This document shows positions 22,718 to 51,000 of a stretch of DNA of 64,000 bases, one piece after another. Positions within the stretch are counted from its first letter, which is position 1. Each line of letters opens with the position of its first letter. A program made the translations under genes and the position numbers. This stretch comes from Eledone cirrhosa (Eukaryota), in contig OZ024741.1 of the NCBI GenBank assembly GCA_964016885.1, positions 226,920,001 to 226,984,000 of the forward strand, in the 5' to 3' direction. The notes beneath the pieces were generated by a model. The model was not told the DNA's origin. It saw only the letters and a program-made list of their open reading frames with translations, and ran no database searches.

Positions 22718-22778
<61 letters not shown>

Positions 22779-22913
22779 AAGAAGAAGAAGAAGAAGAAGA
22801 AGAAGAAGAAGAAGAAGAAGAAGAAGAAGAAGAAGAAGAAGAAGAAGAAGAAGAAGAAGAAGAAGAAGAAGAAGAAGAAGAAGAAGAAGAAGAAGAAGAA
22901 GAAGAAGAAGAAG
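22717..22913. repeat. (TAA)n followed by a long pure (AAG)n
   Basis: Seen directly. Confidence 0.97.
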
Positions 22914-23107
22914 CACGAGGTGGTAGAGGGTCATGAAATCGCTCCCGTAAGTTTTTGATTTTTAACATATTTAAATCAATTGTGAAATAACAAGTCTTAG
23001 TACAAATGTTGCATAAACCACCGAATCAGGTCCCATAAAGTTTCGGATCTATATTATATTGTTGTATCGCTCAAATATTCAATTTTGTATTATATATTTT
23101 GTATTCA
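22913..23107 (-). mobile_element. Probable 5' end and ORF1 start of another Tx1-like element
   Basis: MLKIKNLRERFHDPLPPRASSSS resembles the copy 1 ORF1 start KKNFHEPLPLIPSSSS; followed by the same flank as copy 1. Confidence 0.45.
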
Positions 23108-23122
23108 AAAAAAGAAAATGGT

Positions 23123-23555
23123 TATAAATGGGAAAAAAACACCCTCTGTCTACACTATATAGAACAGCCAAATAACAGCAATTTCACCAACACCAGAAAC
23201 TTGATACACCACCTATCTCATCACACTACATATAACAGCCAGATAACGGCAATTTCACCAGCATCATAATAATAATTACTATTATTATTGTCTCAAATTT
23301 TTAAAAAATGTTTAATTCCAATTTTACGGGAATATGTCAACGCAAAATATAATAAAAATATATATTAAACATACGAACACAAACTCATAGATACTACATA
23401 TCAGTAACCACAACGCCACCGCTGCCACCACCCCACCCCATCCATCATTGCTACCACTATCCCATCGTCTCCGCCACCACTCCTTCAATGCTACCACCAC
23501 TATTCCCCTGTTAACTTGAGAGAGAAAGGGGAAGGTGGCGGTATCACTAGACAAG
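23123..23555. repeat. Second copy of the 18021-18500 repeat
   Basis: Direct sequence similarity with indels. Confidence 0.85.
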
Positions 23556-23864
23556 GGAGAGGCTAGCAAAAGATATAAATAGATTGACTTAGTGACCTGG
23601 CCACCGGCCAAACGTCAACATCAACAACTATGGGACTGCTGGTTCACCCCTTCCTCACCAACAATATAAAAAGCCCCGGCACCACCACCGACATAGCCAA
23701 CAACAATAACAACCAACTACAACAAAAAGTATATTATATTATTGTAATGCACTGGGTGATTGCTGGCCTTGTGCCTGGAGTGGAGACAATTATTAATAAT
23801 TTCATTCTTAAGCCACGCAATGCTCACATTAAGGAACCACTCATGATAATAACAATTTAAAAAA

Positions 23865-26800
23865 AACAACAAAAAGAAAACCCCGTGACCAAGAAATACC
23901 GGGATGGCGGCCGGCGGGGAATAGCCGTGTCTCTAGGGGAGAACGACCCCTCTAGTCTTGGTTGACACTCGTTCTAGAAGTGGTAACACGAAATGATTAC
24001 CCCTTGGCGGATAAGGATAAAACGCGACAAAATAAAGTAAATGTCTAATGATAAAATCTCATACCGGATCGGCCGTCACCCGGGTAAAAAAGGGCCGCGT
24101 CCCTCAGAGAGGAACCAGACTGGGGTCGAAAAATCAGCTAATGGTTCAAACCTTCCCATCACTTCGGAGCTGGAGACCTCCCATAACCGGAATACTCCTA
24201 CTGTTGGCCCTCCATGCTCACCACCAAGAAATCCAAAGAAAAAGAGAGAAAAATGGTCAAGGGAAGATAATAAAAAAGTCCTTGAGGTTTTCTACACTGC
24301 CATGTACTACCCATCAAATACATCGAATACAGAACAGACATATATCAACTGGAAAAAGAAACATCCCGAAAACAGAGGCTATATTGACAGTAACAAACTA
24401 GCCAATATACGAAGAAATATTGTAAAAAAAAAGTTACTAACTGATATAGAAATTGATCAGATCAAGCTATTAGCACAAAGTCAGCGAAGGGAAAATGAAA
24501 CATGTGTCAGTGAAAACGAGGTAAACTGTAACACTTCGAACCCCAGGGTTGGGGCGGAATCACTGGCAACAGAACAAATTAAAGAAAGGATCGAAAAAGT
24601 GGAGGGAGTGCATGCTCAGGATGAAACTCCAAATGAAAATAATGAGATCGTAAATGATAAAGAAATGAATGAGAATGAACTTGCCAACTTGAAGGATGAA
24701 ATTATGATCGAATGGATGAAAATGAAAGAATCTGACATGGGGTAACGAGACACCCTCCCTAAGATCCAGAACTCCAAACAGAACCAAAAGATAATACACA
24801 AGACTAACATAATTCTCAAAATCATTATCATCACAAACAAACTAAACATTACTGATTTAAATCCTCTCTATTATGCATCGGCTAAAGTCACCACTCATTT
24901 ATGTGGAGTGAAGATGAAAAAACAAAGGAATTCCCACAAGAAATCTACTTGGCAAGAGAACATCAATCGCCAAATAAACCTTCTCCGATCTGACATAGAA
25001 ATTTTAACAAACTATAAAGTAGGTGAACATGTTAAACAAACTAAACTTAGAAAATTGAAAAAAAAGTACAGTATAAAATCAACATGTGACATAGACATGC
25101 TGATAGAAATAATCAAGCAAAAAGTGTCGGCCAAAGCTGCTCGTATAAGGCGCTTTGAAAAACGATCTAGATTCTATAAGGACAATAATATGTTCAAAAA
25201 CAACCAAAGAAACTTCTACAGAAAAATTGGTAAGTCAACAATAACTGCTAAATCAATACCACCCAAGGAGGAAGTGCAAGAATTTTGGGAAAAGATCTGG
25301 GCCGAAGAAAAAGTTCATAACATACATGCCCCATGGATAGACAGACAAATGAAAGATACAGCTCACCTTGAGGAACAAACATGGGAAAATATAACAGTTG
25401 AACAGTTGCGCTTGGCTCTAAGAAAAACCAGCAAATGGAAATCCCCAGGAAAAGACAAAATACAAAACTTTTGGATAAATGCCTTCACAGAGTCTCATGA
25501 GCTGTTAGCCCAACTTTACAATGAAATAGTTAAGGAGCCAGAAAAGATACCATCATGGCTAGTTAACGGCATTACATTCCTGCTTCCGAAGAATGATGAG
25601 ACAAACAATCCCAAAAATTACAGACCGATAACTTGCTTGACCACAATGTATAAAATTCTAACATCAGTCCTAACTGAATACACATATGACCACCTGATAA
25701 CAAATGACCTATTTCCCATTGAGCAGAAAGGGTGTAAACGAGGCTCATGGCTGTAAGGATCAGTTTCTGGTTAACAAAATGATACTGGAAGATTGTCATA
25801 ATAGACACAAAAATCTATCGATTGCTTGGATAGATTATAAAAAAGCATTCGATAGTTTGCCACACAGCTGGATTGAAAAATGTTTAGAGATTTTCAAAAT
25901 ATCCCCCGTTGTCAGGAGGTTATTGTCATTCAGTATGAAGACATGGAAAACGACACTCCTTTTGAATAGTGAAACAAAATCACTGGAAGCTGGAGAAGTT
26001 AATATTAATTGTGGAATTTTTCAGGGTGACTCTTTATCACCGCTTTTATTCTGCATCGCACTTATACCAGTAAGTAAAATGCTCAATGAAACAAAACATG
26101 GATATAAAGTCTATGACAAAACCATTAATCACCTGTTCTACATGGATGACCTGAAACTATTTGCAAAAAATGATGAACAATTGCAAGGGCTATTATCCAC
26201 TGTGGAGCAGTTCAGTGATGACATTAAAATGGAGTTTGGACTAGATAAATGCGCCAAAGCAACGTTCACCAGAGGAAAGCTGCTGAAAAGTTCAGACATT
26301 AATCTTGATCGGGAGAACGTGATAAGAGAACTTGATCAAGAAAAAACACTTACAAATATCTAGGTGTTTGTGAAGGAGACGGAATCAAGCACTCGACAAT
26401 GGGGGACAGGATAAGGAAGGAATGTTACCGCAGAGTCAGAGCAATCTTAACAACGGAATTGAATGCAAGGAATAGGATCGATGCCATAAACACGCTTGCC
26501 ATACCAGTAGTAACCTACAGTTACAATGTCATCAACTGGTCAAGCACAGAGATCCGTAGGCTCGATACAAAAATTCGAAAATTCTTAACCATGCACAGAA
26601 TGCATCACCCTAAGGCAGATATAGATAGAATATATCTCCCTAGGAAAGAAGGAGGACGTGGGTTAATCCAGTTAGACATTGCGTTGAAAACTGCAACAAT
26701 TGGATTATCTACATATCTAAGGGAATCACATGATTGGATGATCAAACTCGTTTTGAAACACGAAAGCATCAAAAGATCATATTCCATTACAAAAGATGCA

Positions 26801-27849
26801 CAAAGATACAGTAATGGACTACAAATTTCAGAAGTCCCATTTACTGCTGAAATGGAAAACACAGAAAAAGCAAAGTAGGTAAAAGTAACTGCAAAGAAAG
26901 AACTGCTACAGAAACTGGCTAAGAAATGGCAAGAAAAGCCTCTGTATGGAAAATACCCAGAGCGAGCTAACAATCCTGATGTTGACAAAACCCATCAGTG
27001 GTTGGCATCCTCTGGACTGAAATCGGAGACTGAAGGACTGATTATATCGGCACAAGATCAGTGTCTGCCAACAAAAAATTACCAAGCCAACATAATAAAA
27101 AAATGGGTGCAGCCCATTATGCCGTGTATGCAAAAAACAACCAGAGACCATTGACCATATAATTTCAATGTGCAGTCCTATAGCTCCAACCGAATACCTA
27201 AACAGGCATGACAGAGCTGCACAATACATACATTGGATAATGTGTAAGCATTTTGACCTGCCCCATCAAAAGAATTGGTGGGAGCATCAACCACCTCCCA
27301 TACTTGAAAAAGATCACATCTCAATCTTGTGGAACTTTAGCATCCAAACAGACCGAAAAATAGATGCAAATAGACCTGATATAATATTGAAGGACTTTCA
27401 AAAGAGGGTATGCCTGCTAATTGATATGTCTGTTCCAATAGACAAGAATGTATCTATAAAAACATTTGAAAAATTGAGCAAGTATAAGGACCTGGAGATA
27501 GAAATTGGAAGAATGTGGAAATTGAGAAGTAAAACAATACCGGTGGTTGTAGGCGCTCTGGGAATGATACCTAAGGGATCTAATGACTACTTATCGCAAA
27601 TCCCAGGAAACCCGCGTATAGGAGAAATACAAAAGATAGTACTAATGGGAACTGCCCATATACTAAGGAAGATTCTGTCAATATAAGTACATCACAAGTC
27701 TAAACACTAAAGATGCATGTGTGAATATGTATGTTCTTTCTTGAACATGGCAGACCTTGTTGTCTCTTGAGGTCACTAGTTGTGACTTGGTGATAACTCG
27801 TATGAACATAAAGCAAGATAAATGCAACTGTAATAATAATAATAATAAT
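23865..27849 (+). mobile_element. R4/Dong-like RT-RLE LINE (family A), full length but disrupted
   Basis: ORF from ATG 24041 to 27686 in pieces: WKSPGKD, WIDYKKAFD, GIFQGDSLSP, YMDD, RHD and RPDII. (TAA)n tail. Confidence 0.92.
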
Positions 27850-28024
27850 TGTTTCTACTTTAGGCACAAGGCCAGCAATTACCCAGTGCATTAGTGGTAC
27901 TTTATTTTATCGACCCCGTAAGGATGAAAGGAAAAGTCCACCTCGGCGGGATTTGAACTCAGATCGTAAAGGGACGTAACTATGCTGGAAAGCATGGCGT
28001 CCGACCCTCTACCGATACTGCCAA
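27850..28024 (-). mobile_element. tRNA-derived SINE (Deu/Nin-like core)
   Basis: A box TGGCAGTATCGG, B box GAGTTCAAATCC, core CCTTTCATCCTTACGGGGTCGATAAAATAAAGTACC; many copies in the window. Confidence 0.85.
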
Positions 28025-28043
28025 TCCACGTAATAATAATAAT

Positions 28044-28262
28044 CGATTGTCATAGGCGCACTAGGTACTATCTCAAAAAGTTTCCAGGGATGGTTAAAGA
28101 AAATTGGCCCCGCCACGTTTTTTGGAACGCTTCAAAAGGCATGCTTGCTGGGAACAGCAAGAACCCTCCGATACGTCCTGAATATCTGAGGCTGCAGGTA
28201 GTGGCTTGATATTCATTTCAACAAACTTTCCAGTTAACTAACATCAATGACTGAGACTCAAA
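28044..28262 (+). mobile_element. 3' fragment of the family B R4/Dong-like LINE
   Basis: Nearly identical to about 22499-22716. Confidence 0.9.
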
Positions 28263-28281
28263 GAACAATAATAATAATAAT

Positions 28282-31200
28282 GTTTTCTTTATTAACCACA
28301 AGGGTTTACATAAACTAGACATTAAGGACAGTACAGGACAATACAGGACGGTACAAATGGGCATTTCTGCGTGTAAAAAACAAAAACAGAGGATGTAACA
28401 AAAAAAACAATGAAAAATTCCCCAATAGGGGGGGAGACTTCGGAGGGACATTTGTGGAGAAAGCCCATTAAAAGGACACAGTGACCCTGATCATCAGGGC
28501 AAGTGCCCTCTCCCAGTTTTCCACCTTTAATTTACAGAAACATACTCAGAGTAGGCCCATTCACTCGGGCCATACTTGCTTCTCTCACCCATCTTTCAAC
28601 AAAATGCTGGGAAGATAGCACTCCCCTCTCTACTCTGATTTTCCTTTTCAAATGAAATTTGAAAAAGTCAATCAGGGCATCACCGAAGAGGTAAGTGCTC
28701 GTCTTCAGCCCTTTCAAACGTGTCCACCATACTATCTCTTTCGCCATGGCCACCAGACAGATAAAAACTGCCTGCCCTTCCCGGCTAAAGGAGGAGGGCG
28801 GGGCAATCCTCACGATGGACTCAGCTGATAGCCGTGTCCGTCCTACACGCGACAGCAGGTGTTCGACATAAACCCACAAGTCAGTAATTCTCGGACACTG
28901 GACGAGTGCGTGCAGGACGGTTTCGTAGGCCTGCGCGCATCTCGGACATGCCCGGCTGACGGCACCTCCATGCCTGTAGAGCTTATCCCGAACTAGCCAG
29001 GCTCCTCGGTAGCACTGCCAGGCCAGGGATTTCTGGAATTTGTCCATAGGCCCCGGCCCGAAAGTTCTTCCGAAGACATTGGCTAGTTGATTTTCGTCGA
29101 CGCCTAGAGTTTCCCCAAGTACGTCGTCACTCTTCCCCTCCACTAATCTTCTATAGAACTCCGAGGTGGAGTTTCCACCGATCACATTGCCCGATTGGTC
29201 GAGGGCTGTGAGCGCCTGAAGACATTCCAGTCTCCAAGCGCTCCCTCTCGGTCTTCGCTTGACCCAGGACTGCAGCTCCGTCAAGGAAACGAGCTGGGGA
29301 AAGACGCGTCTAGCAAACGGCGACCACACCTGATCACCGTCGAGGAAGAGGTGGAGATGACGTAGCTTGAGCGCGTGCCCAGCCACGGCATGCCCAGCCC
29401 TCTACGTAGCGGGTGTTGAAAACAGATGGACCGCCTGACCGAAAGAACAAACGCTCCAGCGCAGTCAGGCGGGGCTTAGGACAAGGTACGACGGTCAGGC
29501 GGTAGCAGATGACGGACGTGATGTACGCGTTAGCCACTTCCGCTCGACCTTTCAGGGATAGCTTCCTCTCCGCCCATTTCTGGGTGATAAAAGCCACCCT
29601 GCTCGTCACCTCGTCCCAGTTTTTGTCCGTCTGGAGGTCCGGACCGAACCAGACCCCTAGCAATTTAACCGGCCCGTCCGTCCAGCACCCGACGACGCTC
29701 TTGGACGGCATGGACCTGCCTCTCCAGGTGCCGAGCTGCAGGCCCACTGACTTTTCCTGGTTGATCATTGCTCCTGTCACCGCTTCGTATTCTCTTAGTG
29801 TAGTGCCGATCGCCTCGATGTGTTTGGCGTTCGACACCACTACAGTGACATCATCCGCATATGCTGACACGGATTTTCCGCATCCTAGTTCGCGCGGGAC
29901 GCCCCTCAACGTCTCCAATTTGTGCAGCAATGGCTCGAGAGTCAATACGTACAAGAGGGACGAGAGGGGACATCTTTGGCGGACCGAGCGCATGATGTTG
30001 AACGGTTCTGAAAGGTGACCGTTCACTCTCACCACAGAGCAGATGTCGCTGTGCATGGCAGCGATCCAGCCTCTGAAGACGGGCCCAAAGCCAGGCCCCT
30101 TCAGGACGGCCGCTAGGTAACGATGGGCGACCCTATCGAAAGCTTTCGACTGATCTAAATTGATCAAGGACCCACCCGTGTCAGGTTCCCTAGCTACCCT
30201 CTCTACGATGTATCGCATGAGGTGGAGGTTGTCGTGGATGGATCTGTCGGGAATGGTGCATGTTTGCGCCTCTCCCACCAGACCACCAACGACAAGCGCC
30301 AACCTCTTTGCTAGTACCCTGGCCAAAAGCTTGAACTCTGTGTTTAGCAGAGTTATGGGCCTAAAATTATATATGTTATCCCCCTTGTTCGGATCCTTTC
30401 TCAGCAGCGCTACCGCTCCTCGACTCACAGAGCTGGGAATTCTCCCGTTCTGTTGCCAATTGCAGTAGACGTCCGCCAAGAGGCCTCCGAACAAGTCTGG
30501 TATCTGTACGTAAAGTTCATAGGGCAGACCATCCAAACCAGGCGATTTACCCCTTGTGCAGCCAGTCATTGCCCCCCCCCCGTACTTCAGCGGCTGTTCT
30601 CGGCTTTTCGTAACACGCTTCCCCCGAAGTGTCGCTGAAAAGCTTCACACATTTGCCCGGGATCGAGTAGCATGCGCCCGTCGTGGTCCACCAAAGACCG
30701 GATTGTGGTTTTGTTGCCACGACGCGCCTCCGCCACTCGGGCCCATTGAACGGCTTTTGTCCCCTCGTGTCTGAGAGCAGGCACCCTAGCTCTGACAACG
30801 CAGCCTTCGTGCTTTGCATTGAAGAATTGGTCAACGGCCAATTTCGTCGCGATGCCTTTGCTAAGCGCTTTGTCTAATTTTCTAACTAGTTCTCCCTCTG
30901 CTCTATTTTTCTCTATAGCTAAAGCCTTACTAAACCTAATTGACTCTACTCTAATCGCTCTTTTCAGAGCAAACCACCACTTGTTGTTGACGATGGCCCC
31001 CCGTCAACGCCCGCTTAACTAGTTCGCTAATCCGGTCTTTGTAGGCCTTGCGCGCTGGTAAGGACGCGTTTAGCATCCAGTAGCCGGGTCCTCGTCTATG
31101 AAGCCTATCTAAGGCAAGCACACAGATCACGAATTTGTGGTCCGTGTAGCTGACTATCTTGAATTGTGGACAGCTTATGCTAGACCTATCTATTTCCCTA

Positions 31201-32725
31201 CAAAATACTCTATCTAGATATGATCTGGATGACCCTATGCGATTTGTCCAAGTCCACATTGGCACATTCGACAATCGGTACCTGTTTGTTGTGAGTGCGG
31301 TGTCTGCGGTTTCATATGTTTGTGTGTGTACTTGCGTGTGTACTTGTGTTCTTGCGTCTGTTTAGGTTTTTTGCGTTTGAAGGATTCTGGTGATGGTAGT
31401 GTCGATGTTGGTGTTATTGGGGAGACGTTGGTGGTGTCTGCATTTTTTATAGTGGGAGATTTTGTGCTTTGTTGAGTTTTTTTTTCTTTTTGTGTTTCCT
31501 TCTTTGTATTTTGGGGGATTTGGGTTTTCCCTCATCTTCACTACTGGTAGATGAGGGTATGTGTCTGTAAGTGTGTCTGTGTGTGTGTTTATGTTTTTAT
31601 TGGTGTGTGTATTTTGGGGGGGAAGGGGAATTTGACAACTTTCCTCGTTTCCCCCTTGGGTGGTCAATGTTAGTGGTGGTCTTTCTATTGGTGTTGTTGT
31701 TGGTGGTTTTGCCGGTGCTGGTGTTGGTTGTGGTCCGCGCCCCGGCACCGGTAGCAGTGGAGCCTTTCGACCCCTTGCATCTTTCAGCAGTTGAGGGCAG
31801 AAGGCTCGCAAATGGATTTTTCCCCACAAACAAAACAATGCGGCCTTTGCCCTCGGTCATAATGTGAATGACCGTCCCATTCTGAAGGCGGATGTGGTTC
31901 GGGATTGTCTTCACATTCTCGGGCCTGATCTGGAGAAGTATCTCCAGATCAACCCCGGACCAGTCCTCTCTGGCAGATCTTGTCACTTCTATCGGGACGG
32001 TATCCGTCCCCTCCACAATCACACATCCCAGAAGCCACCACATGTCAAGTCCTGGTGGGATTCTGGGAATGCGGAGACGGGCCGTTCTTTTCCCCATGTG
32101 GGAGGGGTACATTATGACCTTGCTGGTTTTGCAAGGAGCCATAGCGTGTTTCATAGCGAGGGCTTCTCACTTGAACAACACCGAAATGGTGCCGTACTGT
32201 CTGCCCCTCTCTATGTACTGGGTGTCTTCTCTGATGCACCTCAGCGCGACTTCGACATCTGCTTGTGGAATTAAAGCTGCCCTTTTGGTTTGTGCTGAGA
32301 TGCATCTATAATGCACCGTTCTGCGCTCCACTGCCTCAATAGCTTCTACTGGGACGGTTAAGTTGGCCCAAGTTTGCTCTTGCTTGATGAGCTTCCATGC
32401 CTCGGCCAACTTTTCATCTTTGTTTGAGAGGTCCATGTTGAAGCATGGCCTCTTTTTTGCTGCTGCAGCAGCGAAAGTGATCTTCTTGTTGTCGTTCGGG
32501 GTGTTGTTGTTGTTGTCGTTGTTCTTGTTGATGTTATTGTTGTTATCACTATCGCTGTTATCATTGTTGTCTTTGGTGACGCCGTTGTTCTCGGTGCAGT
32601 TGGTATTTTTGCTGTTGGTGTTATCGCTATTTGTTTTCATGTTAGTGGTGTTGATATTGTTGTTGCATTTGTTATTTTTTCTGTTATCTGTATTTTCGTT
32701 GTCGCTGTTACTGTCATTTTTTTCA
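28282..32725 (-). mobile_element. Tx1/L1-type LINE (copy 2): same ORF2 as copy 1, joined at ~31285 to a divergent ORF1
   Basis: 28282-31285 aligns with 11922-15055. 31286-32725 encodes a homologous but divergent ORF1 (REDWSG...MTEG, then a degenerate knuckle ending HLRAFC). Confidence 0.85.
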
Positions 32726-32727
32726 AA

Positions 32728-32970
32728 ATTAGAGTTCTCAGTGTTGAATTTTTTATATGCATAAGACTCCCTGAAATATAAGTAATACACATGTAAAGTT
32801 TGAAAAAGATCGGTTGGGTACTTCTCGGGTTTCACAAACACACACATACACACACACACATACATACATACATACATACATACATACATACATACATACA
32901 TACATACATACATACATACATACATACATACATACATACTTCCTCAGTTTTATATATATACATATATAGA
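32728..32970 (-). mobile_element. Helitron-type 5' fragment with an internal (GTAT)n microsatellite
   Basis: Minus strand begins TCTATATGTATATATATAAAACTGAGGAAG(TATG)n, the same layout as the 5126 end. Confidence 0.6.
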
Positions 32971-33258
32971 TTAAAATAACAGATTACAGTTTAAGCAAAG
33001 AATCGTTGCTTTCACCCTTAATGGGATCTTCTGAAACTAAAAACATCAATCTGTGAACGCAGAAGTAAATATTTCGAAAAACGTTGCAATCGAAGGAAAA
33101 CAGGAAGACGATACTTTGGTTCGTGAAGATGTTCCCTGGCAATGAACGGAAAATAGCTAACATAATACGTCATCAATGTTCGTTAGAATGTCGTAATGCA
33201 GACAGCCAGGCATACAGACATATATTATAAGAGCGCGACGGAGATGGATAACCGGCGC
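32971..33258 (-). mobile_element. Short pLTR-like repeat ending in a variant HHR; partial copies at 3011-3070 and 34631-34690
   Basis: ttaaaataa(c/a)agatt...tttaagcaaa...gctttcacc is present three times, always next to (TA)n. Confidence 0.6.
32988..33038 (-). ncRNA. Variant hammerhead ribozyme (CAGAAGA core)
   Basis: agttt-CAGAAGA-tccc-attaa-gggt-GAA-agcaa-cgattct-ttgct-T-aaact: all three stems form, but U4 is replaced by A. Confidence 0.55.
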
Positions 33259-33473
33259 CTAAGACCCTTTAACAACAGAAAATTGAAAAATAAAAGCTGC
33301 AGTTAATATCTTTAGACCGCAAGGAATATATAAATGCAAGTTTGAAGTCAATCGGAGTAGAAATGTGGATTTGTATAGACTTTGCAAAAATGAGGACACA
33401 CACACACAGACAACATCAGTTTTATATATATAGACTAGCAGAAAACCACCCGGTGGGTGGTTTTCTGCTAGTC
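33259..33473 (-). mobile_element. Helitron 5' fragment joined to a palindromic Helitron 3' end
   Basis: Minus strand reads GGGTGGTTTTCTGCTAG|TCTATATATATAAAACTGATG. Confidence 0.65.
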
Positions 33474-33517
33474 GATATATATTTAACACACACACAAACA
33501 CACAAACACAAACACAG

Positions 33518-33550
<33 letters not shown>

Positions 33551-33584
33551 CACCCATGTTCATATTTTGAGATGCATTATTCTC

Positions 33585-33672
33585 TGCCTTTCATCCTTAC
33601 GGGGTCGATAAAATAAAGTACCAGTAATGCACTGGGTAATTGCTGGCCTTGTGCCAAAAGTAGAAACAATTA
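33585..33672 (+). mobile_element. SINE 3' half
   Basis: gcctttcatccttacggggtcgataaaataaagtacc...agaaacaatt. Confidence 0.8.
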
Positions 33673-34539
33673 TTTCTGACAGGAAGAACCAGTTTATAAT
33701 TTTTAAGAAAAATTAAGCATACAGACATATTTTAGGAAACTTATGAATTCCTGTACACACACACAAACACTTACACAGATACACACAGACACACGCACAG
33801 ACAGACACACACGCATACAGACACATACGCTAACACACACATACCATACACACACTCATACATACGCACATATGCACACACGCTAACACACACATACACA
33901 CGCACATATACACTTAAACCTATATATATATTATATATATAGAGAGACACACATAATATACATATATAATATATATATATAATATATATATATATATTAT
34001 ATATATATATATATATATTATATATACACACACACACACATATAACACACACCCATATATAAAACACACACACGCAAACACATACACACACACATATAAC
34101 ACACACATATATACCACACATACGCACACACATACACACATATAACACACACATATAACACACACACACGCATACACACACATATAACACACACACACAC
34201 ACATATATATATATTATATGCTCAGCCCCAGTGAGTTGGTTAAAACAGCAAAAGCCAGTCTTAAAGTTGTCGTCTGTAAATTCAAAGAACTCGGCTGTGT
34301 CTGGCTAGATCTCCATGATAACTACTCCAAGGTCGCGCGTGCCATGGCTGGGAACGCAGGTGTCACGTGCTGGCCTAGAACGCTGGTTGTTGGAATCAGT
34401 GGTCGACGACATAACATATATATTATATGTGTGTGGAATAGTATAAATATTTCTTCGTATTTACTAACATATATATATATATTATATATTATATATACAT
34501 ACATTATATATATATATTATTAATATATTACATACGTAC

Positions 34540-34636
<97 letters not shown>

Positions 34637-34744
34637 TAAAAGATTAAAGTTTAAGCAAAGAATCGTTGCTTTCACCTTCTGAAACTAACTAATATATATA
34701 TATATTCCTGGTGATTTCTCAAGAATGAAACAGTTCTAGTCTAT

Positions 34745-34780
34745 ATATATATTACACACACAGAAATGTATATATATTTC

Positions 34781-34813
<33 letters not shown>

Positions 34814-35040
34814 TACATACATAGAAATGTATATATATATATATATTACACACACAGAAATGTATATATATTTCTGTGTGTATATATATATATTTCTGTG
34901 TGTATATATATATATATTACACACACAGAAATGTATTTATATTTCTGTGTGTATATATATATATTACACACACAGAAATGTATATATATTTCTGTGGGTG
35001 TATATATATATTACACACACAGAAATGTATATATATTTCT
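34745..35040. repeat. Minisatellite of self-complementary units
   Basis: The unit attacacacacagaaat-gtatatat-atttctgtgtgtgtata is repeated about 6 times. Confidence 0.9.
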
Positions 35041-35343: not shown

Positions 35344-35971
35344 TACCACCCTAATGTCTGTACGTAATGAGGGACTGAGAGGGGAGAGAAAGAAAGACAG
35401 AGGTGAAGTGACGAAGTGACTCTCTCTTCCTCCTCCTCCTCCTCCTCCATCTCCCCATTCGTCACAGCGATAGAGGGGAGGAATGTTAGTGTGTTACAAA
35501 GAGAAAGAGTGAGAGTGAGAGAAACAGACAGACTAAAAGAGAGGGATAGCTGGAGAGAGAGAGAGAGAGATAGCAACCACGCGCGCACGTGTTTCCACTG
35601 TCGGACAGACAGACAGAGAAATTGCTGGTTATATATTATAAGGAGATAAGATACAATAAATTCATTCTAAAACTTTTCTGCAACATCCTATAAAGAAAAT
35701 TTACTCTTGCATGGACAGCGTTTACCCTTATATTGACAAGCCACGCCCCTGATGATATGGCCAGTTAACTGTGAGCCGTTTTAGCAATCAGTCTGAAGAC
35801 GTAAAGTTTTATGTATAGCATAACGTAAAACATGTCCTCTCCAGACAAAATATATAGAATATGTATAAATATTTCGTATCTCCAAAGAAATACGGTTTTA
35901 GGAAGCCGTAGCTATGCCAACACCGGGGGGCTAACGCCCTCTGGTGATGTCCAGCAGAAACAAGGGGGACA

Positions 35972-36015
35972 ACCGTCTATGTATTTCAGGCTTAACTGGC
36001 CTTCGTCAGGAGGGT
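35972..36015 (-). ncRNA. Hammerhead ribozyme (left arm)
   Basis: accctc-CTGACGA-aggc-cagttaa-gcct-GAAA-taca-TA-gacggt. Confidence 0.7.
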
Positions 36016-36200
36016 CCCTCCCACCGCTTGCGACTGCTGGACTAGAAGACAGGCGAGAATATATACTTTTCTCGTCTGTGTAAATGAGGTGAGTAATCTC
36101 ATTTGCATATGAAGCTGCATAAGTTGGCTCATTTACACAGACGAGAAATGTATATATTCTCGCCTGTCTTCTAGTCCAGCAGTGGCAAGCGGTGGGAGGG

Positions 36201-36244
36201 ACCGTGCTGACGAAGGCCAGTTAAGCCTGAAATGCATAGACGGT
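36201..36244 (+). ncRNA. Hammerhead ribozyme (right arm)
   Basis: accgtg-CTGACGA-aggc-cagttaa-gcct-GAAA-tgca-TA-gacggt; palindromic stem III ATGCAT. Confidence 0.72.
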
Positions 36245-37123
36245 TGTCCCCCTTGCTTCTGCTGGACATCAACAGAGGGCGTTAGCCCCCGGTGCTTGCA
36301 TAGCTACAGCTTCCTAAAACCGTATTTCTTTGGAGATACAAAATATTTATACATATTGTATAAAGCTATGCTTGAAGCGAAATCCTATTTCTTTTATATA
36401 GAATATGTATAATATTTTTCCTGATAAGCTGGTAGACAAACGAACTGGACAGATCGCTGACTACCAAGCATATGACTAGAAAAAACTCAGCACACAAGGG
36501 GGTTACGTGATTGTGGAAAACATTACAGTTGGTTTAAATGATTCGTAAATTATTTAAAATATAGCGTAATTAGATTGGTAAAAAGAAAATTTAAAAAAGA
36601 AACAAAAATTGACCATTATTCAGTCTTAATGTCGCTTATAATCATTGAAGATAAGTATTAAATCAAAAGTATATATTGTATCAGGAAAAATATTCTATTA
36701 AGACAGGAATAAAATTATGGATACAATAATAAAGGGGAACGAATTTGGATTATAGAATTTGCAAGAAAGCTATTCTTTATTATGTATACTTAGATATTGA
36801 AATTATTGAAGAGAAAAGTATTTAATAGTTGAGAGGGTTCTTTTTATATATGTATTTTTAAATATATAGTTAAGTATGCTTTAATATTGCGTAATAAATT
36901 ATTTATTTTAGAAGAAGTGAGATAATTATCTATATTAAAAATTCTCAATTCAACAATGTTATTTAAAGTAGATTATATTAAAACTTTGAATAATTATTTA
37001 GAAAGAAAACAAGTGTATGTATAATAGCCGAATTTATCAATTTCTATTAAAATTAATTTATTTAGATACAACCTAAATTTAAAGTAGAAGAAAAATTATA
37101 CCGAAGTAAGATTATAAGAGAGA

Positions 37124-37189
<66 letters not shown>

Positions 37190-37363
37190 GGAATAAAATG
37201 AAACGAAATTTCATTTCTCACTCTTAGTACGGCACTCCATTTATCGTTTTCGGTGCGCCTGGCCGACTGAACTCACTCGATATGCAAATTAGGCTGCTCA
37301 GCCGTTAATTTTCATAAGGAAAGTATATACTTTCGGACGTTCAACCATCTGGCAGGAAGGTAT

Positions 37364-37406
37364 ACGGTGCTGACGATAGCTAATAAGCTTGAAACTAGTA
37401 CATCGT
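37364..37406 (+). ncRNA. Hammerhead ribozyme in a ~350-bp element inserted in (TA)n
   Basis: acggtg-CTGACGA-t-agct-aata-agct-t-GAAA-ctag-TA-catcgt: stem I 6 bp, palindromic stem III ACTAGT, GUA triplet. Confidence 0.78.
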
Positions 37407-37645
37407 TCCTGTGTCAGTGTTGAACAAAAAGGTGACGTGGTTGCCTAAACACTGTACAGCGTAATTCAGGCTGTTTGTTTGTTTACAAACGAACAAACCG
37501 AGCATTATAATAAATGTTCGGTAAACTGATACGTGCATATATATATATGTGTGCCTGTATGTATATATATACATGCTACTGTACGTCTGTATACATATAT
37601 GTATGTACGTATACATACATACTTACATTTATATATATATATATA

Positions 37646-37980
37646 TATTATTCAAAATATTAATAAATGAGAAATATCATAACCAAAGTATATATTTTAT
37701 TATACATATTTCAAAGGTACAATGGTGTTTCAGTACGTTTTCATCAGATAAAATATATAAGAGATTGGATATGCGACATACCGCTAAGGTACTTGAATCT
37801 TCAATTGCTGTAGTGGCAGAATTGAAGATCAAAGTACCTTAGCGGTATGTCGGATATCCAGTATCTTATATATTTTATCTGATGAAAACGTACTGAAACA
37901 CCATTGTACCTTTGAGATATGTATAATAAAATATATACTTTGGTTATGATATTTCTCATTTATTGATATTTTAAATAATA
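37646..37980. repeat. ~335-bp inverted repeat with a degenerate HHR core in each arm
   Basis: The arms are reverse complements around 37808-37822; CTGATGA-aaacgtact-GAAA-caccattg-TA at 37879. Confidence 0.85.
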
Positions 37981-38399
37981 TTATAGATACTCCAGATAAA
38001 CTGTCGAGTGCTTCTAATCTATTGTAAAATTGAATTTGTTATATATAACTTTTGGTTATATATTTATATATATAGGTTTTATGAAGTTACTCATGACGGT
38101 ACACTTATTACTACTCACTGCTAAAATAACCGTACAAACAGCATACGCATGTCATAGACAATGTGACTGATGTCTAATGGCAAAGCGTCAAATGTGGAAT
38201 ATTGGTTATAAAGCCAACACCAATGCTTGGGCTGAACATTTCATAGAGTACATTTGCCTACAATAAAAGAGGCAGTAACAAAATGGCCACAACGGACATT
38301 ATGGTTTAGAAACTTTCCTAACGAAACGGAATCATGAGGAAAAATCATTTTTTTTTAATGTTAAAACACGAGTACATTAAGAACCCATGTCTAAAACAA

Positions 38400-40129: not shown

Positions 40130-41971
40130 TATTCATGCCACACCTAACGTAACCACCCAAACACCTCCACCAACACCACCACCAATACCACCACCAATAC
40201 TACCACCAGCATCACCACCAATACCACCACCAATACTACCACCAATACCACCACCACCAATACCACCACCAATACTACCAACAACACCTATACTACCACC
40301 AATACCACCACCAGCAATACCACCACCACCAATACCACCACCAATACTACCACCAGCAATACCACCACCACCAATACCACCACCAATACTACCACCAGCA
40401 ATACCACCACCACCAATACCACCACCAATACTACCAACAACACCTATACTACCACCAATACCACCACCAGCAATACCACCACCACCAATACCACCACCAA
40501 TACTACCAACAACACCTATACTACCACCAATACCACCACCAGCAATACCACCACCACCAATACCACCACCAATACTACCAACAACACCTATACTACCACC
40601 AATACCACCACCAGCAATACCACCACCACCAATACCACCACCAATACTACCAACAACACCTATACTACCACCAATACCACCACCAGCAATACCACCACCA
40701 CCAATACCACCACCAATACTACCAACAACACCTATACTACCACCAATACCACCACCAGCAATACCACCACCACCAATACCACCACCAATACTACCAACAA
40801 CACCTATACTACCACCAATACCACCACCAGCAATACCACCACCACCAATACCACCACCAATACTACCAACAACACCTATACTACCACCAATACCACCACC
40901 AATACCACCACCAATACCACCACCAATACTACCAACAACACCAATACTACCACCAATAGCACTACCACCAAGACCAACACCAATACAACCCCCAATACAA
41001 CCACCACCAGTACCACGACCAACACCAACACCACCAACAGCACCAATATCACCCCCACCACCACCACTGTCGTTCTCCTCCACAAGCAGAATCACCACCA
41101 ACGTCATCACTACCACCTCCACCATCAACACTGTCACCCTCACCACTCCAAACACCATCACCACTCTCACCCTCACCACTCCAACCATCATCACCATCAT
41201 CACCATTGGATAATATTAAACTAAATACATACAAACACCACTACTACAACTGACGACACTACCACCACCACCACCACCACCACCACAACCACCATCATCA
41301 CCACCACCACACCACTATCACCACCACCACCAACAACACCATTATCGCCACCACCACCACCAACACCAACACCACCACCACCAATACCACCACCACCACC
41401 ACCAACACCACCATAAACACCACCACTGGCACCACCACCACCACCTCCATTAATACCACCATCGGCACCACCACCACCAACATCACCACAACCACCACCA
41501 CCACCACCACTACCACCACCACCACCACCACCACCACCACCACCATTAATACCACCATCGGCACCACCACCACCAACATCACCACAACCACCACCACCAC
41601 CACCACTACCACCACCACCACCACCACCACCACCACCACCACCATTAATACCACCATCGGCACCACCACCACCAACATCACCACTACCACCACCACCACC
41701 ACCACTACCACCACCACCACCACCACCACCACCACCATTAATACCACCATCGGCACCACCACCACCACCAACATCACCACAACCACCACCACCACCACCA
41801 CCACCACCACCACCACCACCACCACCACCACCACCACCACCACCAGCAGCACCACCAACACCATCACCATTGGTTAATGTGAACGTAGATACACGTTAAC
41901 ACTACTACAAATGAGAACACTGCCACCATCACCATCGCAACTACCAACAACACAAATAACATCCATTACAG

Positions 41972-42016
<45 letters not shown>

Positions 42017-45000
42017 TCACTGCCATCATCATCATCATCCTCATAACCCACGACACATCCTCATCTGTTACCACCAACACTATTACTACATTCATTGCTC
42101 CTCTCCCATTACAAACACTACCACTACCACTACCACTGCCACTAACACTATCATTGCCACTACCACTACCACTATAACTACCACTACCACTACCACTGCC
42201 ACTAACACTATCATTGCCACTACCACTACCACTATAACTAACACTACCACTACCACTGCCACTACCACTATAACTACCACTACAACTGCCACTACCACTA
42301 CCACTATAACTACCACTACCACTACCGCAGCCACTAACACTACCACTACCACTACCACTACCACTACAACTACAACTACAACTATCATTACCACTACCAC
42401 TATAACTACCACTACCATTACCGCAGCCACTAACACTACCACTAACACTACCACTACCACTACCACTACCACTACAACTACAACTACCATTACCACTGTA
42501 ACTACCACTACCAGTACCACTACCACTATAACTACCTCTACAACTACCACTACCATTGCCACTACCACTGCCACTAATACTACCACAAACACTACCACTA
42601 TAACTACCACTAACACTACCACACAACACTACCCACTACCACTATAACTACCACTACAACTACCACTATGACTACCACTACCAGTACCACTACCACAGCC
42701 ACTAACACTACCACAAACACTACCACTATAACTACCACTAAAGCTACCACTACCACTACCAATATCATTGTCACTACCACTATAATTACCACTGCCACTA
42801 CCACTACCACCACCACTATAACTACCACTACCACTACAATTACCACTACCACTACACTACCACTACCACTACCTCTGCCACTAACACAACCACAAACACT
42901 ACCACTATAACAACCACTACCACTATAACTATCACTACCACTACCACTACAACTACCACTACCATTATAACTACCACTACCACTGCCACTAACACAATCA
43001 CTTCCACTATCACTACCACTACCACTACCACTACCAATACCATACCACTGCCACTACCTTTACCACTACCAATGCCACTAACACTAAGACTAACACTACC
43101 ACTATAACTACCACTACCATTACCGCAGCCACTAACACTACCACTAACACTACCACTACCACTACCACTACAACTACAACTACCACTACCACGACCACTA
43201 TAACTACCACTACCAGTACCACTACCACTATAACTACCTCTACAACTACCACTACCAGTACCACTACCACTGCCACTAACACTACCACAAACACTACCAC
43301 TATAACTACCACTAAAACTACCACTACCACTACCAATAACATTGCCACTACTACTATAATTACCACTGCCACTACCACTACCACTACCACTATAACTACC
43401 ACTACCACTACAATTAACACTACCACTACACTACCACTACCACTGCCTCTGCCACTAACACAACCACAAACACTACCATTATAACTACCACTACCACTAT
43501 AACTACCACTACCACTACCACTACAACTACCACTACCACTACCTCTGCCACTAACACTACCACTGCCACTAACACAATCACTTCCACTATCACTTCCACT
43601 ATCACTACCACTACCACTACCACTACCACTACCAAACCACTGCCACTACCTTTACCACTACCAATGCCACTAACACTAAGACTAACACTACCACTATAAC
43701 TACCACTACATCTACCATTGCCACTACCACTTATTCTACCACTGCCAGTACCACTACCACTAAAACTAGCACTACGACTATAAATCCCACTACCACTACC
43801 ACTGCCACTACCACTAACACTACCACTACCACTACCACTACCACTTTCACTACCACTACCACTTTCAGTGGTATTGGTAGTGGGAGTTATAGTGGTAGTG
43901 GTACCACTATAACTCCCACTACCAATACCACTGAAAGTAATCCTACCACAAACACTACCACTATAACTACCACTACCACTACCGATACCACTACCACAAA
44001 CAATACCACTACCACTACCAATACCACAAACACTACCAATGCCACAAACACTACCAATAAAACTACCACTACAACTAGCAGTACCACTGCCACTAACACT
44101 AAAACGAACACTACCATTATAAATACCACTACCACTACCACTACCACTGCCACTAACACTACCACTGCCACTGCCAATACCAATGCCACTACCACTGCGA
44201 CTACCATTACCACTACCTCTATAACTACCACTACCACTACCACTGCCACTAACACTACCACAAACACTACCACTATAACTACCACTACCACTATAACTAT
44301 CACTATAACTACCACTATCACTACCACTGCCACAACCACTATAACTACAACTCCCACTGCCGCTAACACTACCACTAACAATACCACTACCACTAGCACT
44401 ACCACTACAACTAGCACTACCGCTACCACTACAACTACCACTTCCACTACCACTACCACTGCCACTAACACAACCACTTCCACTACCACTACCACTACCA
44501 CTACCACTGCCATTACCACTACCACTACCACTACCACTGCCATTACCACTACCAATACCACTACCATTACCACTACCACAAACATTATCACTACCAATAC
44601 CACTACCACTACCACTACAAATACCACTAACACTACCAATGCAACTAACACTACCACTAACACTACCACTATAACTACCACTACAAATAGCACTACCGCT
44701 ACCACGACCTCTACCACTACCTCTGCCACTAACACTACCACAAACATTACCACTACCACTATAACTAACACTACCACTACCGCAGTCACTAACACTACCA
44801 CAAACACTGCCACTATAACTAACACTACCACGACCACTGTAACTAGAACTACCACTGCCACTGCCACTACCACCATAACTACCACTAACAATACCTCAAA
44901 TACTACCACTATAACTATCAATACAAATACCCCTACCACTACCACGACCAAGACCACTATATCTGCCACTAACACTACCACAAACACTACCACTATAACT

Positions 45001-48000
45001 ACCACTACAACTACCACTAACACTACCACTACCAGTACCACTAACACTGCCAGTAACACTACAACAAACACTACCACTATAACTACCACTATAACTACCA
45101 CTGTTACTACCCCTAACACTACCACTACCACTACCACTACCACTGCCACTACCACTATAACTGCCACTACCACTACCACTATAACTACCACTATAAATAC
45201 CACTACCACTACCACTACCACTACCACTACCACTATCACAAACACTGCCACTAACACTACCACTAACACTACCACTGCCACTAACACTAACACTAACACT
45301 ACCACTATAACTACCACTACCACTACCATTGCCACTACCACTACCACTGCCACTGCCACTATCACTACCACTACAACTAGAACTACCACTATAAGTACCA
45401 CTACAACTACCGCTACCATTATAACTACCACTACCACTACCACAAACACTTCCACTACCACTATAACTACAACTACCCTAAAATTACCAATACCACTTCC
45501 ACTGCCACTACTAATACTAACACTAACACTGCCACTATAACTAACACTACCACTTGTACAATCACTACCACTTCTACGACCACGACCACTGCCACTAACA
45601 CTACCACTACCACTAACACTATAACTACCACTACCACTACCACTGCCACTAACACTATCACAAACACTGCCATTGTAACTAGCACTATCACTACCACTAC
45701 CACTACCACTACCACTACCACTGCCACTACCACTACCAGTATAACTACCACAACCACTACCACTTCCACTAACACTACCACTATAACTAGCACAACCACA
45801 ACCACTATAGCTACCACTACAACTACCACTACCACAAAAATACCATTAGCACTACCACTAACACTACAACAACCACTACCACTACCACTGTCACTAACAC
45901 TACCACTAACACTACCACTGCCAATAACACTAACACTAACACTACCACTATAACTACCACAAACACTACCACTATGGATTCCACTGCCACTACTAACACT
46001 ACCACTAACTCTGCCACTATAACTAACACTACCACTACCACTTCTACGACCACTACCACTTCTACGACTACTACCACTGCCACTAACATTAACACAAACA
46101 CTAACACTACAACTACCACTACCACAAACTACCACTATAACTACCACTACCACTAACACTACCACAAACACTACCACTATAACTACCACTACCACTATAA
46201 CTATCACTATAACTACCACTATCACTACCACTGCAACAACCACTATAACTACAACTCCCACTGCCGCTAAAACTACTACAAACACTACCATTATAACTAC
46301 CACTACCACTACCACTACCACTACAACTACCACTACCGCTACCACTACAACTACCACTTCCACTACAACTACCACTGCCACTAACACAACCACTTCCACT
46401 ACCACTACCACTACCACTACCACTACCACTACCACTGCGATTACCACTACCAATATAACTACCATTACCACTACCACAATCACTTCCACTACCACTACCA
46501 CTACCACTACCACTGCCACTACCACTGCGATTACCACTACCAATATAACTACCATTACCACTACCACAATCACTACCACTACCACTACCACTACCACTAC
46601 AAATAGCACTAACACTACCAATGCAACTAACACTACCACTAACACTACCACTATAACTACCACTACAAATAGCACTACCACTACCACGACCTCTGCCACT
46701 AACACTACCACAAACGTTACCACTACCACGATAATTACCACTACCACTACCATTGCCACTACCACTACAACTGAACTACCACTACCACTAAAACTACCAC
46801 TACCAATATAACTACCACTACCACTGCCATTAACACAACCACTAACTCTACCACTACCACTTCCACTACCACTGCCACTACCACTACCAGAACCAATACC
46901 AATACCATACCACTGCCACTACTATTACCACTACCAATGCCACTAACACTACCACTATAACTACCACTACCATTGCCACTACCACTACCTCTACCACTGC
47001 CAATACCACTACCACTAAAACTAGCACTACCCCCATAACTACTGCTACCACTACCACTACCACTACCACTGCCACTACCACTACCACTATAACTACCACT
47101 ACAACTACCACTACCACTACCACTACCACTATAACTCCCACTACCAATACCACTGTAAGTAATCCTACCACAAACGCTACCACAAACACTACCACTATAA
47201 GTACCACTACCACTACCGCAGCCACTAACACAAACACTACCACTATAACTACCACTACTATTACCACTACAACAACCACTACCACTACCACTACCAATGC
47301 CACTAACGCAACCAAAAGCACTACCACGCTAACTACCACTATAACTACCACTACCACTAACACTACCACTACCACTGCCTCTACCACCTCCACTAACACT
47401 ACCACAAACACTACCACTACAACTACCACTACAACTACCACTACAACTACCACTACAACTACCACTACCTGTACCACTTCCATTAACACTACCACAAAGA
47501 CTACCACTAAAACTACCACTACAACTACCACTACCAATACCAGTAACACTACCACTACCACTACGACTATCACGACGACTACCACTGCCACTTGCACTAA
47601 CACTAACACTACCACTATAACTACCACTCCGACTATAACTACCGCTACCCCTACCACTACCACTGCCACTCTCACTAACACTAACACTAGCACTACCACT
47701 ATAACTACGACTACCAAAACCACTACCACTACCACTAAAAATAGCACTACCACTACCACTGTAACTACCACTACCACTACCACTACAAATACCACTATAA
47801 CTACCACTACCACTACCACTACCATTACCACTATAACAACCACTACCAATACCATGACGCTAATGCTACCACAAACACTATCACAAAAACTACCACTACC
47901 ACTACCACAAACACTACGACTTCCACTACCACATCACTACCACTACCACTACAACTACCACTACGACTACCACTACCACAACCACTAGCACTACCACTAC

Positions 48001-51000
48001 CACTACCAATGCCACTATCACTAACACTAACACTACCACTATAACTACCACTACCACTACCACTGCTACTAATACAACCACTGCCACTGCCACAAACCAC
48101 TACCACTACCACTGCCACTACCTCAAACACTACCACTATAACTACCACTACCACTAGCACTACCAATATAACTACCACTATAACTACCACTATCACTACC
48201 ACTACCACTATAACTACCACTACCACTACCACTACCACTGCCACTAACACTACCACAATCATTACCACTATAAATACCATTACAGGTACCACTATCACTA
48301 CCACTACCACTACCACTACAACTACCACTACCACTATAAATACAACTACCACTACCACTATAAATACAACTACCACAAACAATACCACTACCACTACCAC
48401 TACCAATACCACTACCACTACCACTACAACAACCACTACCACTACCACTACCACTGCCACTACCACTACCACTACCATTAACACTACCACTAACACTACC
48501 ACTAAGACTACCACTACCACTAACACTAACACTACAACTACCACTTCCACTACCACTACCACTACCACTAACACAACCACTAACACTACTAACACTACCA
48601 CTACCACTGCCTCTACCACTACCACTAACAATACCACTACAATACCACTTTCACGACCACTACCACTGCCACTTGCACTAACACTAACTCTACCACTATA
48701 ACTGCCACTACCACTACCACTGCCACTAATATAACCACTACCAATACCTCTACCACTACCACTACCACTAGCACTACCACTACCACTACCACTACCACAA
48801 ACACTACCACTACCACTACCACTACCAATACCACTACCACTACCACTATAACTACCACAAACACTACCACTACCACTACCACTACAACTACAACTGCCAC
48901 TACCACTATCACTATAACTAACACTAACACTACGACTGTCACTAACACTACCACAAACACTACCACTATAACTACCACTATCACTACCACTACAACTACC
49001 ACTACAAATACCAGTACCACTGCCACTGACACTACCACAAACAATACCACTATAACTACCACTACAACGACCACTATCACTACCACTACCACTGCCAATA
49101 ACACTACCACAAACGCTACCACTATAACTGCCACTACAACTACCACTACCACTACCATTACCACTACCACTGGGTCTACCACTATAACTACCACTGCCAC
49201 TAACACTACCACAATCACTACCACTACCACTACCATTGCCACTACCGTTACCACTACCACTGCCACTGCCACTAACACTAACACAAGCACTACCATTATA
49301 ATTAGGACTACCACAACCACTACCACTACCACTAAATCTAGCACTAACACTACCACCGTAACTACCACTACCTCTACTACTACAACTACCACTATAACTA
49401 CCACTACCACTATAACAATCACTACCAATACCATGACACTAATGCTACCACAAACACTACCACAAACACTACCACAAACACTACCACTAAAACTACCACT
49501 ACCACTACCACAAACACTACGACTACCACTACCGCATCAACTAGCACTACCACTACCACTACCACTACCACTATAACTACCACTAACACTACCACAAACA
49601 CTACCACTATAACTAACAATACAACTACTACTACCACTACCACATCCACTACCACAAACACTACCATATAAATACCTCTACAACATTACCACTAACACTA
49701 CCACTGCCAGTACCACTATAATTACCACTGCCACTACCACTACCACCACCACTACCACTATAACTACCAGTACCACTACCACTGCCACTATAACTACTAA
49801 TATAACTACCACTACAATTACCACTGCCACTACCACTATAACTAACACTAACACTACCACAAACACTACCACTATAAGTACCATAACCATTACCACTATA
49901 ACTACAACTACCACTACCACTACCACTACCACTATAATTACCAGTACCACTACCACTGCCACTAACACTACCAGAAACAATCCCCATATAACTACCACTA
50001 CCACTACAACTACCACTACCACTACCACTACGACTACCACAAACACTACCACTACAACAACCACTACCACTACGACTACCACTACCAATGCCACTAACAC
50101 TAACACTAACAGTACCACTATAATTACCACTACAACTACCACATCCACTGCCACTAACACAACCACTACCACTGCCACATACCACTACAACTACCACTAC
50201 CACTGCCACTAACACTACCACAAACACTATCACTATAACTACGACTACCACTACCAATATAACTACCACTATAACTACCACTATCATACCACTACCACTA
50301 AAACTATCACTACCACTACCACTACCACTACCACTGCCACTAACACTACCACAAACACTACCACTATAACTACCATTACAGTTAGCACTACCACTACAAC
50401 TACCACTACCACTACAACTACCACTACCACTACAAATACCACTACCACAAACATTACCACTACCACTACCATTACCACTACCACTACCATTACCACTACC
50501 ACTACCACTACAACAACCACTACCACTACCACTGCCACTAACACTACCACTACCATTAACACTACCACTAACACTAACACTATAACTACCACTACAAGAA
50601 CCACTATAACTACCACTACCACAGCCAGTAACACTAACACTAACACTACCATTATAACTACCACTACCATTACCACTACAACTACCACTACCATTGCCAC
50701 TGCCACTAACACTACCAAAATAACTACTACTATAACTACCACTACCACTACCACTGCCTCTACCACTTCCACTAGTACTACCAGAAACACTACCACTACA
50801 ACTACCACTACAACTACCACTACAACTACCACTGCCACTAACACTACCACAAACACTAACACTAAAACTACCATTACAACTACCACTACCAATACCACTA
50901 TCACGACCACTGCCACTTACACTAACACTAACACTACCACTATAACTACCATAACCACTACCACTACGGCTACCACAAACTCTACCACTACCACTACATC

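Follow-up and report, generated by a model that had tools for sequence, protein, structure and literature searches.

Animal non-LTR retrozymes, as far as the accessible text of PMC7229834 and of Li, Clavereau and Pollet 2026 (10.64898/2026.07.22.740005) goes, are built of short tandem units that encode no protein and contain a type I hammerhead whose stem III is short and palindromic; their GC content is below 50%, they have no LTR, and a circle intermediate and a Penelope-like helper have been proposed for them. The 442-bp repeat of Eledone cirrhosa reported here shares these traits (its GC is 0.378 and an LTR is absent) and, judged by its sequence, is an animal non-LTR retrozyme, that is, an element of a known kind. 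In the portions available of the same two sources these elements are described without a built-in promoter, whereas here each unit holds a U6-like block, and, unlike the elements described there, the 442-bp family bears a direct Penelope footprint in the form of a one-sided tail.

An snRNA-type promoter on a hammerhead repeat is likewise a kind already known. Newt satellite 2 (Coats, Zhang and Epstein 1994, cited in PMC2220036) is reported as a hammerhead tandem repeat with such a promoter of its own, and Pol II is stated in the accessible part of PMC6765202; the octamer of the 442-bp family is instead common to host genes of Pol III type and not to U1/U2, and a TATA word is present. The schistosome hammerhead SINE-like repeats are Pol III-transcribed, and they need to be tandem since the cut parts the promoter from the ribozyme (PMC6765202 and PMC2220036, in the text available); their promoter is internal, whereas the 442-bp family has neither a tRNA nor an A box. 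Penelope-like elements and their non-autonomous forms, in the available parts of PMC8557442 and PMC4209133, resemble the present family in forming partial tandems, in having inverted copies cut short at the 5' end, in carrying the tail at a single end, in targeting microsatellites and in their dimeric hammerheads; however, the tail in our family A is ~55 nt long against the 30-40 described for them, and family A has no ORF. Among open-access full texts, our searches turned up no description of a retrozyme with an external promoter of U6 type.

The initial annotation of the window (the whole stretch of 64,000 nt of E. cirrhosa DNA that was analysed) had placed an octamer, a TATA word and a hammerhead in a unit at 37188..37535. 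The motifs were recovered, but the limits had to be redrawn: the element extends over 37186-37630 and is one copy of a non-coding 442-bp repeat (family A) present in thousands of copies genome-wide (Table 1). On the left, the sequence at the annotated limit is the unit's own 3' tail, inverted; on the right, the forward copy reaches 37630 through a TA-rich block that had been read as flank. The octamer ATGCAAAT (37282-37289) and the distances from octamer to TATA (42) and from TATA to core (46) are as first given, and the TATATA at 37324 does lie within a perfect palindrome, which proved to be 2 bases longer than noted. The element was also said to be inserted in (TA)n; this repeat indeed adjoins it left and right, and with (TA)n on either flank a target-site duplication is not distinguishable.

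Table 1. Coordinates, strand and basis of the features of the element and of its relatives in the window
Feature	Position	Strand	Basis
Penelope-like ORF copy at the left end of the window; second fragment at 5455-6291	1-2730	-	
Family B (324-bp unit), head-to-head pair	35853..36395	.	intact arm on minus strand: octamer 36108, TATA 36065, core 36009
(TA)n target microsatellite, left flank	37126..37186	.	sequence
Inverted 3' tail copy, unit 392-442; outer end of 442 type	37186..37236	-	copy alignment
Forward unit copy, ~436-442 then 1-387; unit position 1 = 37243	37236..37630	+	copy alignment
T4 run shortly after the unit boundary; may serve the preceding tandem unit as a leaky Pol III terminator	37247..37250	+	inferred
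Octamer word ATGCAAATTAG; also 5' arm of a predicted RNA hairpin	37282..37292	+	host-gene comparison, fold
TCAG word, 26 nt 5' of TATA; weak match here; also a hairpin arm	37298..37303	+	
Partner arm of the octamer hairpin; two subfamily-diagnostic changes, none in the octamer arm	37306..37315	+	
Palindrome of 16 bp centred on the TATA word (37324-37330)	37319..37334	+	
Type I hammerhead	37353..37411	+	core, stem and covariation analysis
Transcription start predicted by analogy with host genes (TATA + 30); the cut site is 47 nt 3' of it	37354	+	inference only
TA-rich block inside the unit; terminates at the 387-type end	37536..37630	+	copy alignment
(TA)n target microsatellite, right flank	37631..37648	.	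sequence

A search of the animal's own 3.0-Gb genome returned 2,024 candidates; among the 40 that were scored, most were 99% identical over query bases 51-355, and query bases 1-51 matched opposite-orientation sequence in family A copies. The window copy agrees with the reference copy (L007) in 383 of 389 columns, the tail 26-mer of the 442-bp unit has 5,218 exact matches genome-wide, and both arrays and dispersed copies are present. As to coding capacity, the frames reach 73-97 aa at most, start in the TA-rich block and include no meaningful ORF. The copies, the insertion footprint, the covariation of the stems and the absent ORF thus agree with the small ORF-less hammerhead retroelement family that had been proposed. 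A third head-to-head repeat, with 162-nt arms, lies beside the element at 37645-37981; it has a hammerhead-like core at 37879 and at 37747 and no octamer, and related copies occur in many loci.

The hammerhead described in the first annotation as clean is so (core 37370-37400). Stem I pairs 37365-37369 with 37401-37405 and, after a bulge, continues in a distal part (37353-37358 with 37406-37411); the core is formed by 37370-37376 and 37391-37394, with the predicted cut after A37400; stem II has 4 bp (37378-37381 with 37386-37389) and a U-U pair at its base, and stem III has 2 bp, its six bases (37394-37399) being a palindrome. This palindrome is kept in several different spellings across families and forms a 6-bp self-duplex; a dimeric hammerhead with a short palindromic stem III is a known design according to the accessible text of PMC4209133. 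In an alignment of 19 copies, hand-chosen to span the subfamilies and related by a kinship that inflates covariation tests, 85% of cells were paired with 45 double changes, 0 of 500 shuffles were as good, and slid controls were paired in 26-39% only. An Rfam scan of the window gave nothing at the gathering score, hammerhead models included. Self-cleavage is a prediction from the fold, whose stems covary.

The first annotation had matched this unit with an element at 36.1 kb (family B, with 2,225 candidates genome-wide) by order and spacing. The TATA-to-core distances, 46 here and 56 there, stand, but the octamer-to-TATA distance of 50 had been measured across the two arms, from a reversed octamer in the inverted one to the TATA in its counterpart; in the intact minus-strand arm this distance is 43, against 42 here. 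The cg(g)tg that the two were said to share before the core is read as CCGTC in other copies of the 36.1-kb family, so that the likeness is partly a mutation of one arm. The two units are as divergent as was claimed, with only short BLAST matches (E 0.16 or worse), but they are not independent: many intermediate subfamilies, retrieved by searches for variant octamer contexts, connect them, and the shared layout is therefore to be seen as inherited, not convergent. On the sequences compared, the 442-bp and 324-bp families are distant relatives. In an old family, E (L129, L130, L169), the octamer-to-TATA distance is 47, as in host U6, and the TCAG word is absent; family E is possibly closest to the captured promoter.

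Other abundant hammerhead families of this genome, namely F (L198, L249, L036), G (L239, L250; 311-bp unit) and H (L257), have no octamer and a TATA word 30-50 nt 5' of the core, and CCAAT and CACCC words in family F recall a classic promoter of Pol II; the retrozyme families of this genome may have captured different promoter types. A classic hammerhead core at 9788 belongs to a different repeat family, found also in L029, L134 and L247, and has no octamer. At 35700-35850 there are two CTGA-GA words with a short likeness to the stem II of family B and no match among the other loci compared. The stretch 11087-31000 contains several decayed frames of non-LTR retrotransposons that to the eye look RTE-like and L1/Tx1-like; two of these copies account for the octamers at 11418 and 27364, which are unrelated to the retrozyme promoter. 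A 17-kb triplet array of CAC/TAC type with extreme strand skew extends over 40160-57200 and has a single frame of more than 800 codons (983, valine-rich, minus strand); it may represent a satellite or else the decayed remains of an exon rich in threonine.

The 3' ends of family A copies are fixed, at unit position 442 or 387, and pass into (TA)n; the 5' ends are scattered, and the copies include tandems, 5'-truncated copies and head-to-head inverted copies. Head-to-head pairs with 442 at one outer end and 387 at the other were seen in 18 of 20 best-hit loci and in 25 of the 37 that were tail-selected (the remainder being 387/387 in 4, 442/442 in 1 and another end in 7), and unlike outer ends also occur in 10 of 13 head-to-head insertions of family B. 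Among 70 tail-selected insertions (the first 100 of the 5,218 places, with neighbours merged and duplicates dropped) 40 cross the unit junction and 50 carry the stretch from octamer to core unbroken, from which it follows that the template includes the promoter block. One-sided tails, inversions and a microsatellite bias are described for Penelope-like elements in the available part of PMC8557442 and, by analogy, the 442-bp repeat has probably been moved by such elements. The genome has a Penelope-like family with long open frames, a decayed member of which sits at the left end of the window. By its motifs this copy may belong to a Nematis-like clade. We compared 21 Penelope-like loci of one clade with the units and found no common sequence beyond microsatellite; the octamer word is in 0 of 20 loci of this clade, and 9 of the 20 have a hammerhead of their own, without the octamer. 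Pfam put no name to three frames of the window and returned a weak GIY-YIG match only, in the frame beside one family B copy.

The promoter block was compared with the small-RNA genes of the host. Three U6 promoters, RNase MRP and U6atac have the 11-mer of the unit, with 0-1 mismatch, at -76, -77, -78, -77 and -77, together with a TATA at -30; the chance of such a match is ~4e-5 per position. The U6 promoters counted are two single loci and the C19 array, taken as one count, in which two units have an insertion separating the octamer word from the gene; U6atac was inspected last, as an out-of-sample check of the word. The octamer word is present in 5 of 6 host genes of U6 type versus 0 of 8 U1/U2 promoters, and in these eight and in RNase P the best match to the 11-mer has 2-4 mismatches at a variable place. 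Left out of this count were 14 dispersed U6 matches (L070, L071, L134-L137, L305-L312) and 5 of 6 U6atac matches: around -77 they have no octamer word, and to the eye they resemble retrocopies, with 5' ends that are damaged or flanks that consist of microsatellite. The host loci (L057, L058, L059, L097 and L346 for U6, MRP and U6atac; L313-L318, L082, L084 and L133 for U1 and U2; L258 for RNase P) fall into two promoter classes, with an octamer at -77 and a TATA at -30 in U6, U6atac and MRP versus TCAGT at -57 in U1 and U2. In RNase P the word is of the U1/U2 kind, TCAGT, with no octamer, and a CTCCCTT-like word occurs near -260 in several host genes of both classes. At L350, a U6atac copy is joined directly to part of the promoter, inverted, of a related retrozyme subfamily; a template switch may have produced this junction.

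The units thus share with the U6, U6atac and MRP promoters the same 11-base word and the TATA, in the same order and orientation. The spacing does not match, however: the octamer-to-TATA distance is 46-48 in these host genes and 47 in family E, but 42-43 in families A and B; the host promoters also have no strong hairpins and no TCAG. In 17 subfamily representatives (clusters from 75 loci found with a search pattern that demanded both octamer and TATA), which are 34-83% identical with a median of 45%, the distance is 40-47, and a T before the octamer, outside the search pattern, is present in 16 of 17. A sample chosen by hammerhead only (37 rows out of the first 100 genomic places) has the octamer in place in 6 of 11 rows of this lineage and in 0 of 26 others, the remaining 5 of the lineage being truncated or inverted there by eye, and the octamer is also present in families retrieved without it in the query. 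Within family A, 46 of the 70 tail-selected loci have a copy that spans the block; among these, conservation exceeds background for the TATA (P 0.02) and for the core (P 0.015), but not for the octamer (P 0.39), which is exact in 39 of 46. Among the variants listed for the family A subfamilies, the hairpin partner arm is changed at two places in 43% of copies and the octamer arm at none.

A genome-wide search against background had been suggested for the octamer-TATA-hammerhead order, with lack of conservation as the refuting outcome. There is an excess, since the octamer-TATA-core pattern gave 19,075 matches in the genome versus 1 when reversed (and a second pattern 34,202 versus 898), but the first pattern omits the CTGACGA core of the window copy and its matches descend from few ancestors and are not independent; we therefore rejected these counts as promoter proof, as pseudo-replication in which copies rather than events are counted. 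With regard to conservation, octamer and TATA persist across subfamilies that are ~45% identical, although these form one lineage only and the octamer is not in excess within family A. The contrast that had been drawn with the internal A and B boxes of SINEs holds: a tRNA-derived SINE was discarded as a candidate, with 0 tRNA genes in 4 loci, 0 A boxes and one antisense B-box-like match at chance level. From the comparison with the host genes, we consider it likely that the unit contains a working built-in promoter.

The likeness to U6 is best explained by a promoter of Pol III type, to which we give about an even chance. The TATA and the TCAG would both place the start at ~37354 and the octamer at ~37359. 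Newt satellite 2 reportedly has an octamer and a start ~47 nt before its cut site. In four full units there is no T4 for 335, 354, 354 and 213 nt past the predicted start and then a T4-T7 at the unit end, a weak pattern found in 4 of 5 full units with P 0.05, 0.07, 0.08 and 0.45 each, three of the four units being kin; one family C unit has a T5 at +272, old copies have 9 T4 versus 21 A4 runs, and the T6 run in family B would render read-through rare. No convincing pile-up at the predicted start or cut site was found among 81 insertion 5' ends, with 6 at unit 108-117 and 4 at 154-160 where ~3 and ~2 are expected if even. An internal promoter giving an RNA from unit position 1 was rejected, because copies extend over the junction and 5' ends within unit 425-5 are few (5 in 31 loci and 8 in 70, scattered). 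The same retrozyme, with the same promoter and start, could instead be transcribed by Pol II in the snRNA manner, with the octamer as activator, the TCAG as proximal element, T runs ignored and multimers made freely. We regard this as rather unlikely, although it would remove the terminator problem and has a precedent in newt satellite 2, reported as snRNA-type and Pol II (PMC2220036 and PMC6765202, in their accessible text). It is favoured by the U1/U2 promoters of the host, where a TCAGT occupies -56 to -58 in all 8 (as TCAAT in one) and TATA-like words occur near -30, and by the TCAG word standing 26-27 nt 5' of TATA both in U1 genes and in the elements. A matrix made from U1/U2 only also peaks, in the 17 representatives, at octamer+16 (mean -1.2 bits versus -12.1, sd 3.2, over 120 offsets) and matches strongly in 5 of them (7-13 bits; old subfamilies), but it is equally high at offset +7, inside the forced octamer, and in the window copy the match is weak (-1.1 bits, rank 3 of 120). 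Moreover, the TCAG is also a hairpin arm, RNase P has TCAGT too, and both the location of the T runs at unit ends and the lack of the octamer word in all eight U1/U2 promoters argue against Pol II.

The snRNA-type octamer and TATA promoter of the initial annotation finds its counterpart in host U6, U6atac and MRP, but both words also lie in RNA hairpins, and the retrozyme might lack a functional built-in promoter: octamer and TATA would then be hairpin arms kept for the fold of a circular RNA, or the relics of one ancestor, and RNA would be supplied by read-through from outside promoters. The circular fold has a z of about -9 against 40 shuffles, with the octamer 0.8-0.99 paired, one C excepted, and the TATA as the loop of a 6-bp stem, and the hairpin arms covary among families A, B and C; in addition, the octamer-bearing families all look like a single lineage, other hammerhead families flourish without the word, and within family A its conservation is not in excess. 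Pairing alone, however, leaves unexplained that one arm keeps every letter of the host 11-mer, down to the T/G wobble, when its partner does change, and that a TATA stands ~45 nt further on; the unpaired C of the octamer is kept, and octamer pairing in old subfamilies is modest (0.22-0.86) and overlaps that in host promoters (0.40-0.60). We hold this explanation to be unlikely. Very improbable, in our judgement, is a satellite with a dead hammerhead, spread via DNA recombination or slippage in microsatellites. Long local arrays of the unit do exist, 8 of 9 predicted Xenopus retrozyme dimers were uncleaved in vitro according to the accessible text of Li et al. 2026 (10.64898/2026.07.22.740005), and the window hammerhead has the U-U pair at the base of stem II; but an axolotl retrozyme with that pair nonetheless cleaves as a dimer (PMC7229834, in the part available), dispersed copies are 99% identical on many contigs, the hammerhead stems covary, and the copies bear marks of reverse transcription, namely fixed 3' ends, random 5' ends, inversions and a one-sided tail.

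We return to a retrozyme that would transcribe itself under an external promoter of U6 type (probably Pol III) and owe its reinsertion to a reverse transcriptase of the Penelope-like kind, a reading that we believe about as much as we doubt it. Octamer and TATA precede the ribozyme, as in the host U6, U6atac and MRP promoters. Transcription would start near 37354, with the promoter outside the resulting RNA, and most RNAs would end at the T run of the unit end, whereas read-through in a tandem would pick up the promoter of the next unit. Neighbouring hammerheads would dimerise and cut out a unit-length RNA, to be ligated to a circle with the promoter; such dimer cutting is suggested because stem III is short and palindromic and by the published retrozymes. 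Since the circle holds the whole unit, a promoter upstream of the start could survive retrotransposition. The footprint in the DNA is that of reverse transcription primed at nicked (TA)n from unit 442 or 387 and carried across the junction, for which the enzyme would be the Penelope-like one; the copies left behind are tandem, inverted or shortened at the 5' end, and the tail is confined to one side. More tentatively, and with somewhat less than an even chance, an old, still active retrozyme lineage would have captured a compact U6-type Pol III promoter, leaky termination and the dimeric hammerhead would have led to a promoter-carrying circle, and a Penelope-like enzyme would have sown 20,000-35,000 Pol III starts, several hundredfold more than the host genes of U6 type.

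If octamer and TATA were hairpin arms after all, this would be an ordinary new retrozyme family. As a by-product of the work, the compact U6-type promoter of Eledone cirrhosa is defined, which would be useful for guide-RNA expression. The one-sided tail is a Penelope footprint for the mobilisation of retrozymes, and the 442-bp family bears on how animal retrozymes get transcribed, and so strongly, as it gives a predicted start, two promoter words traceable to host genes and a predicted terminator. If true, the proposed cycle would be a route for a retroelement to carry an external promoter.
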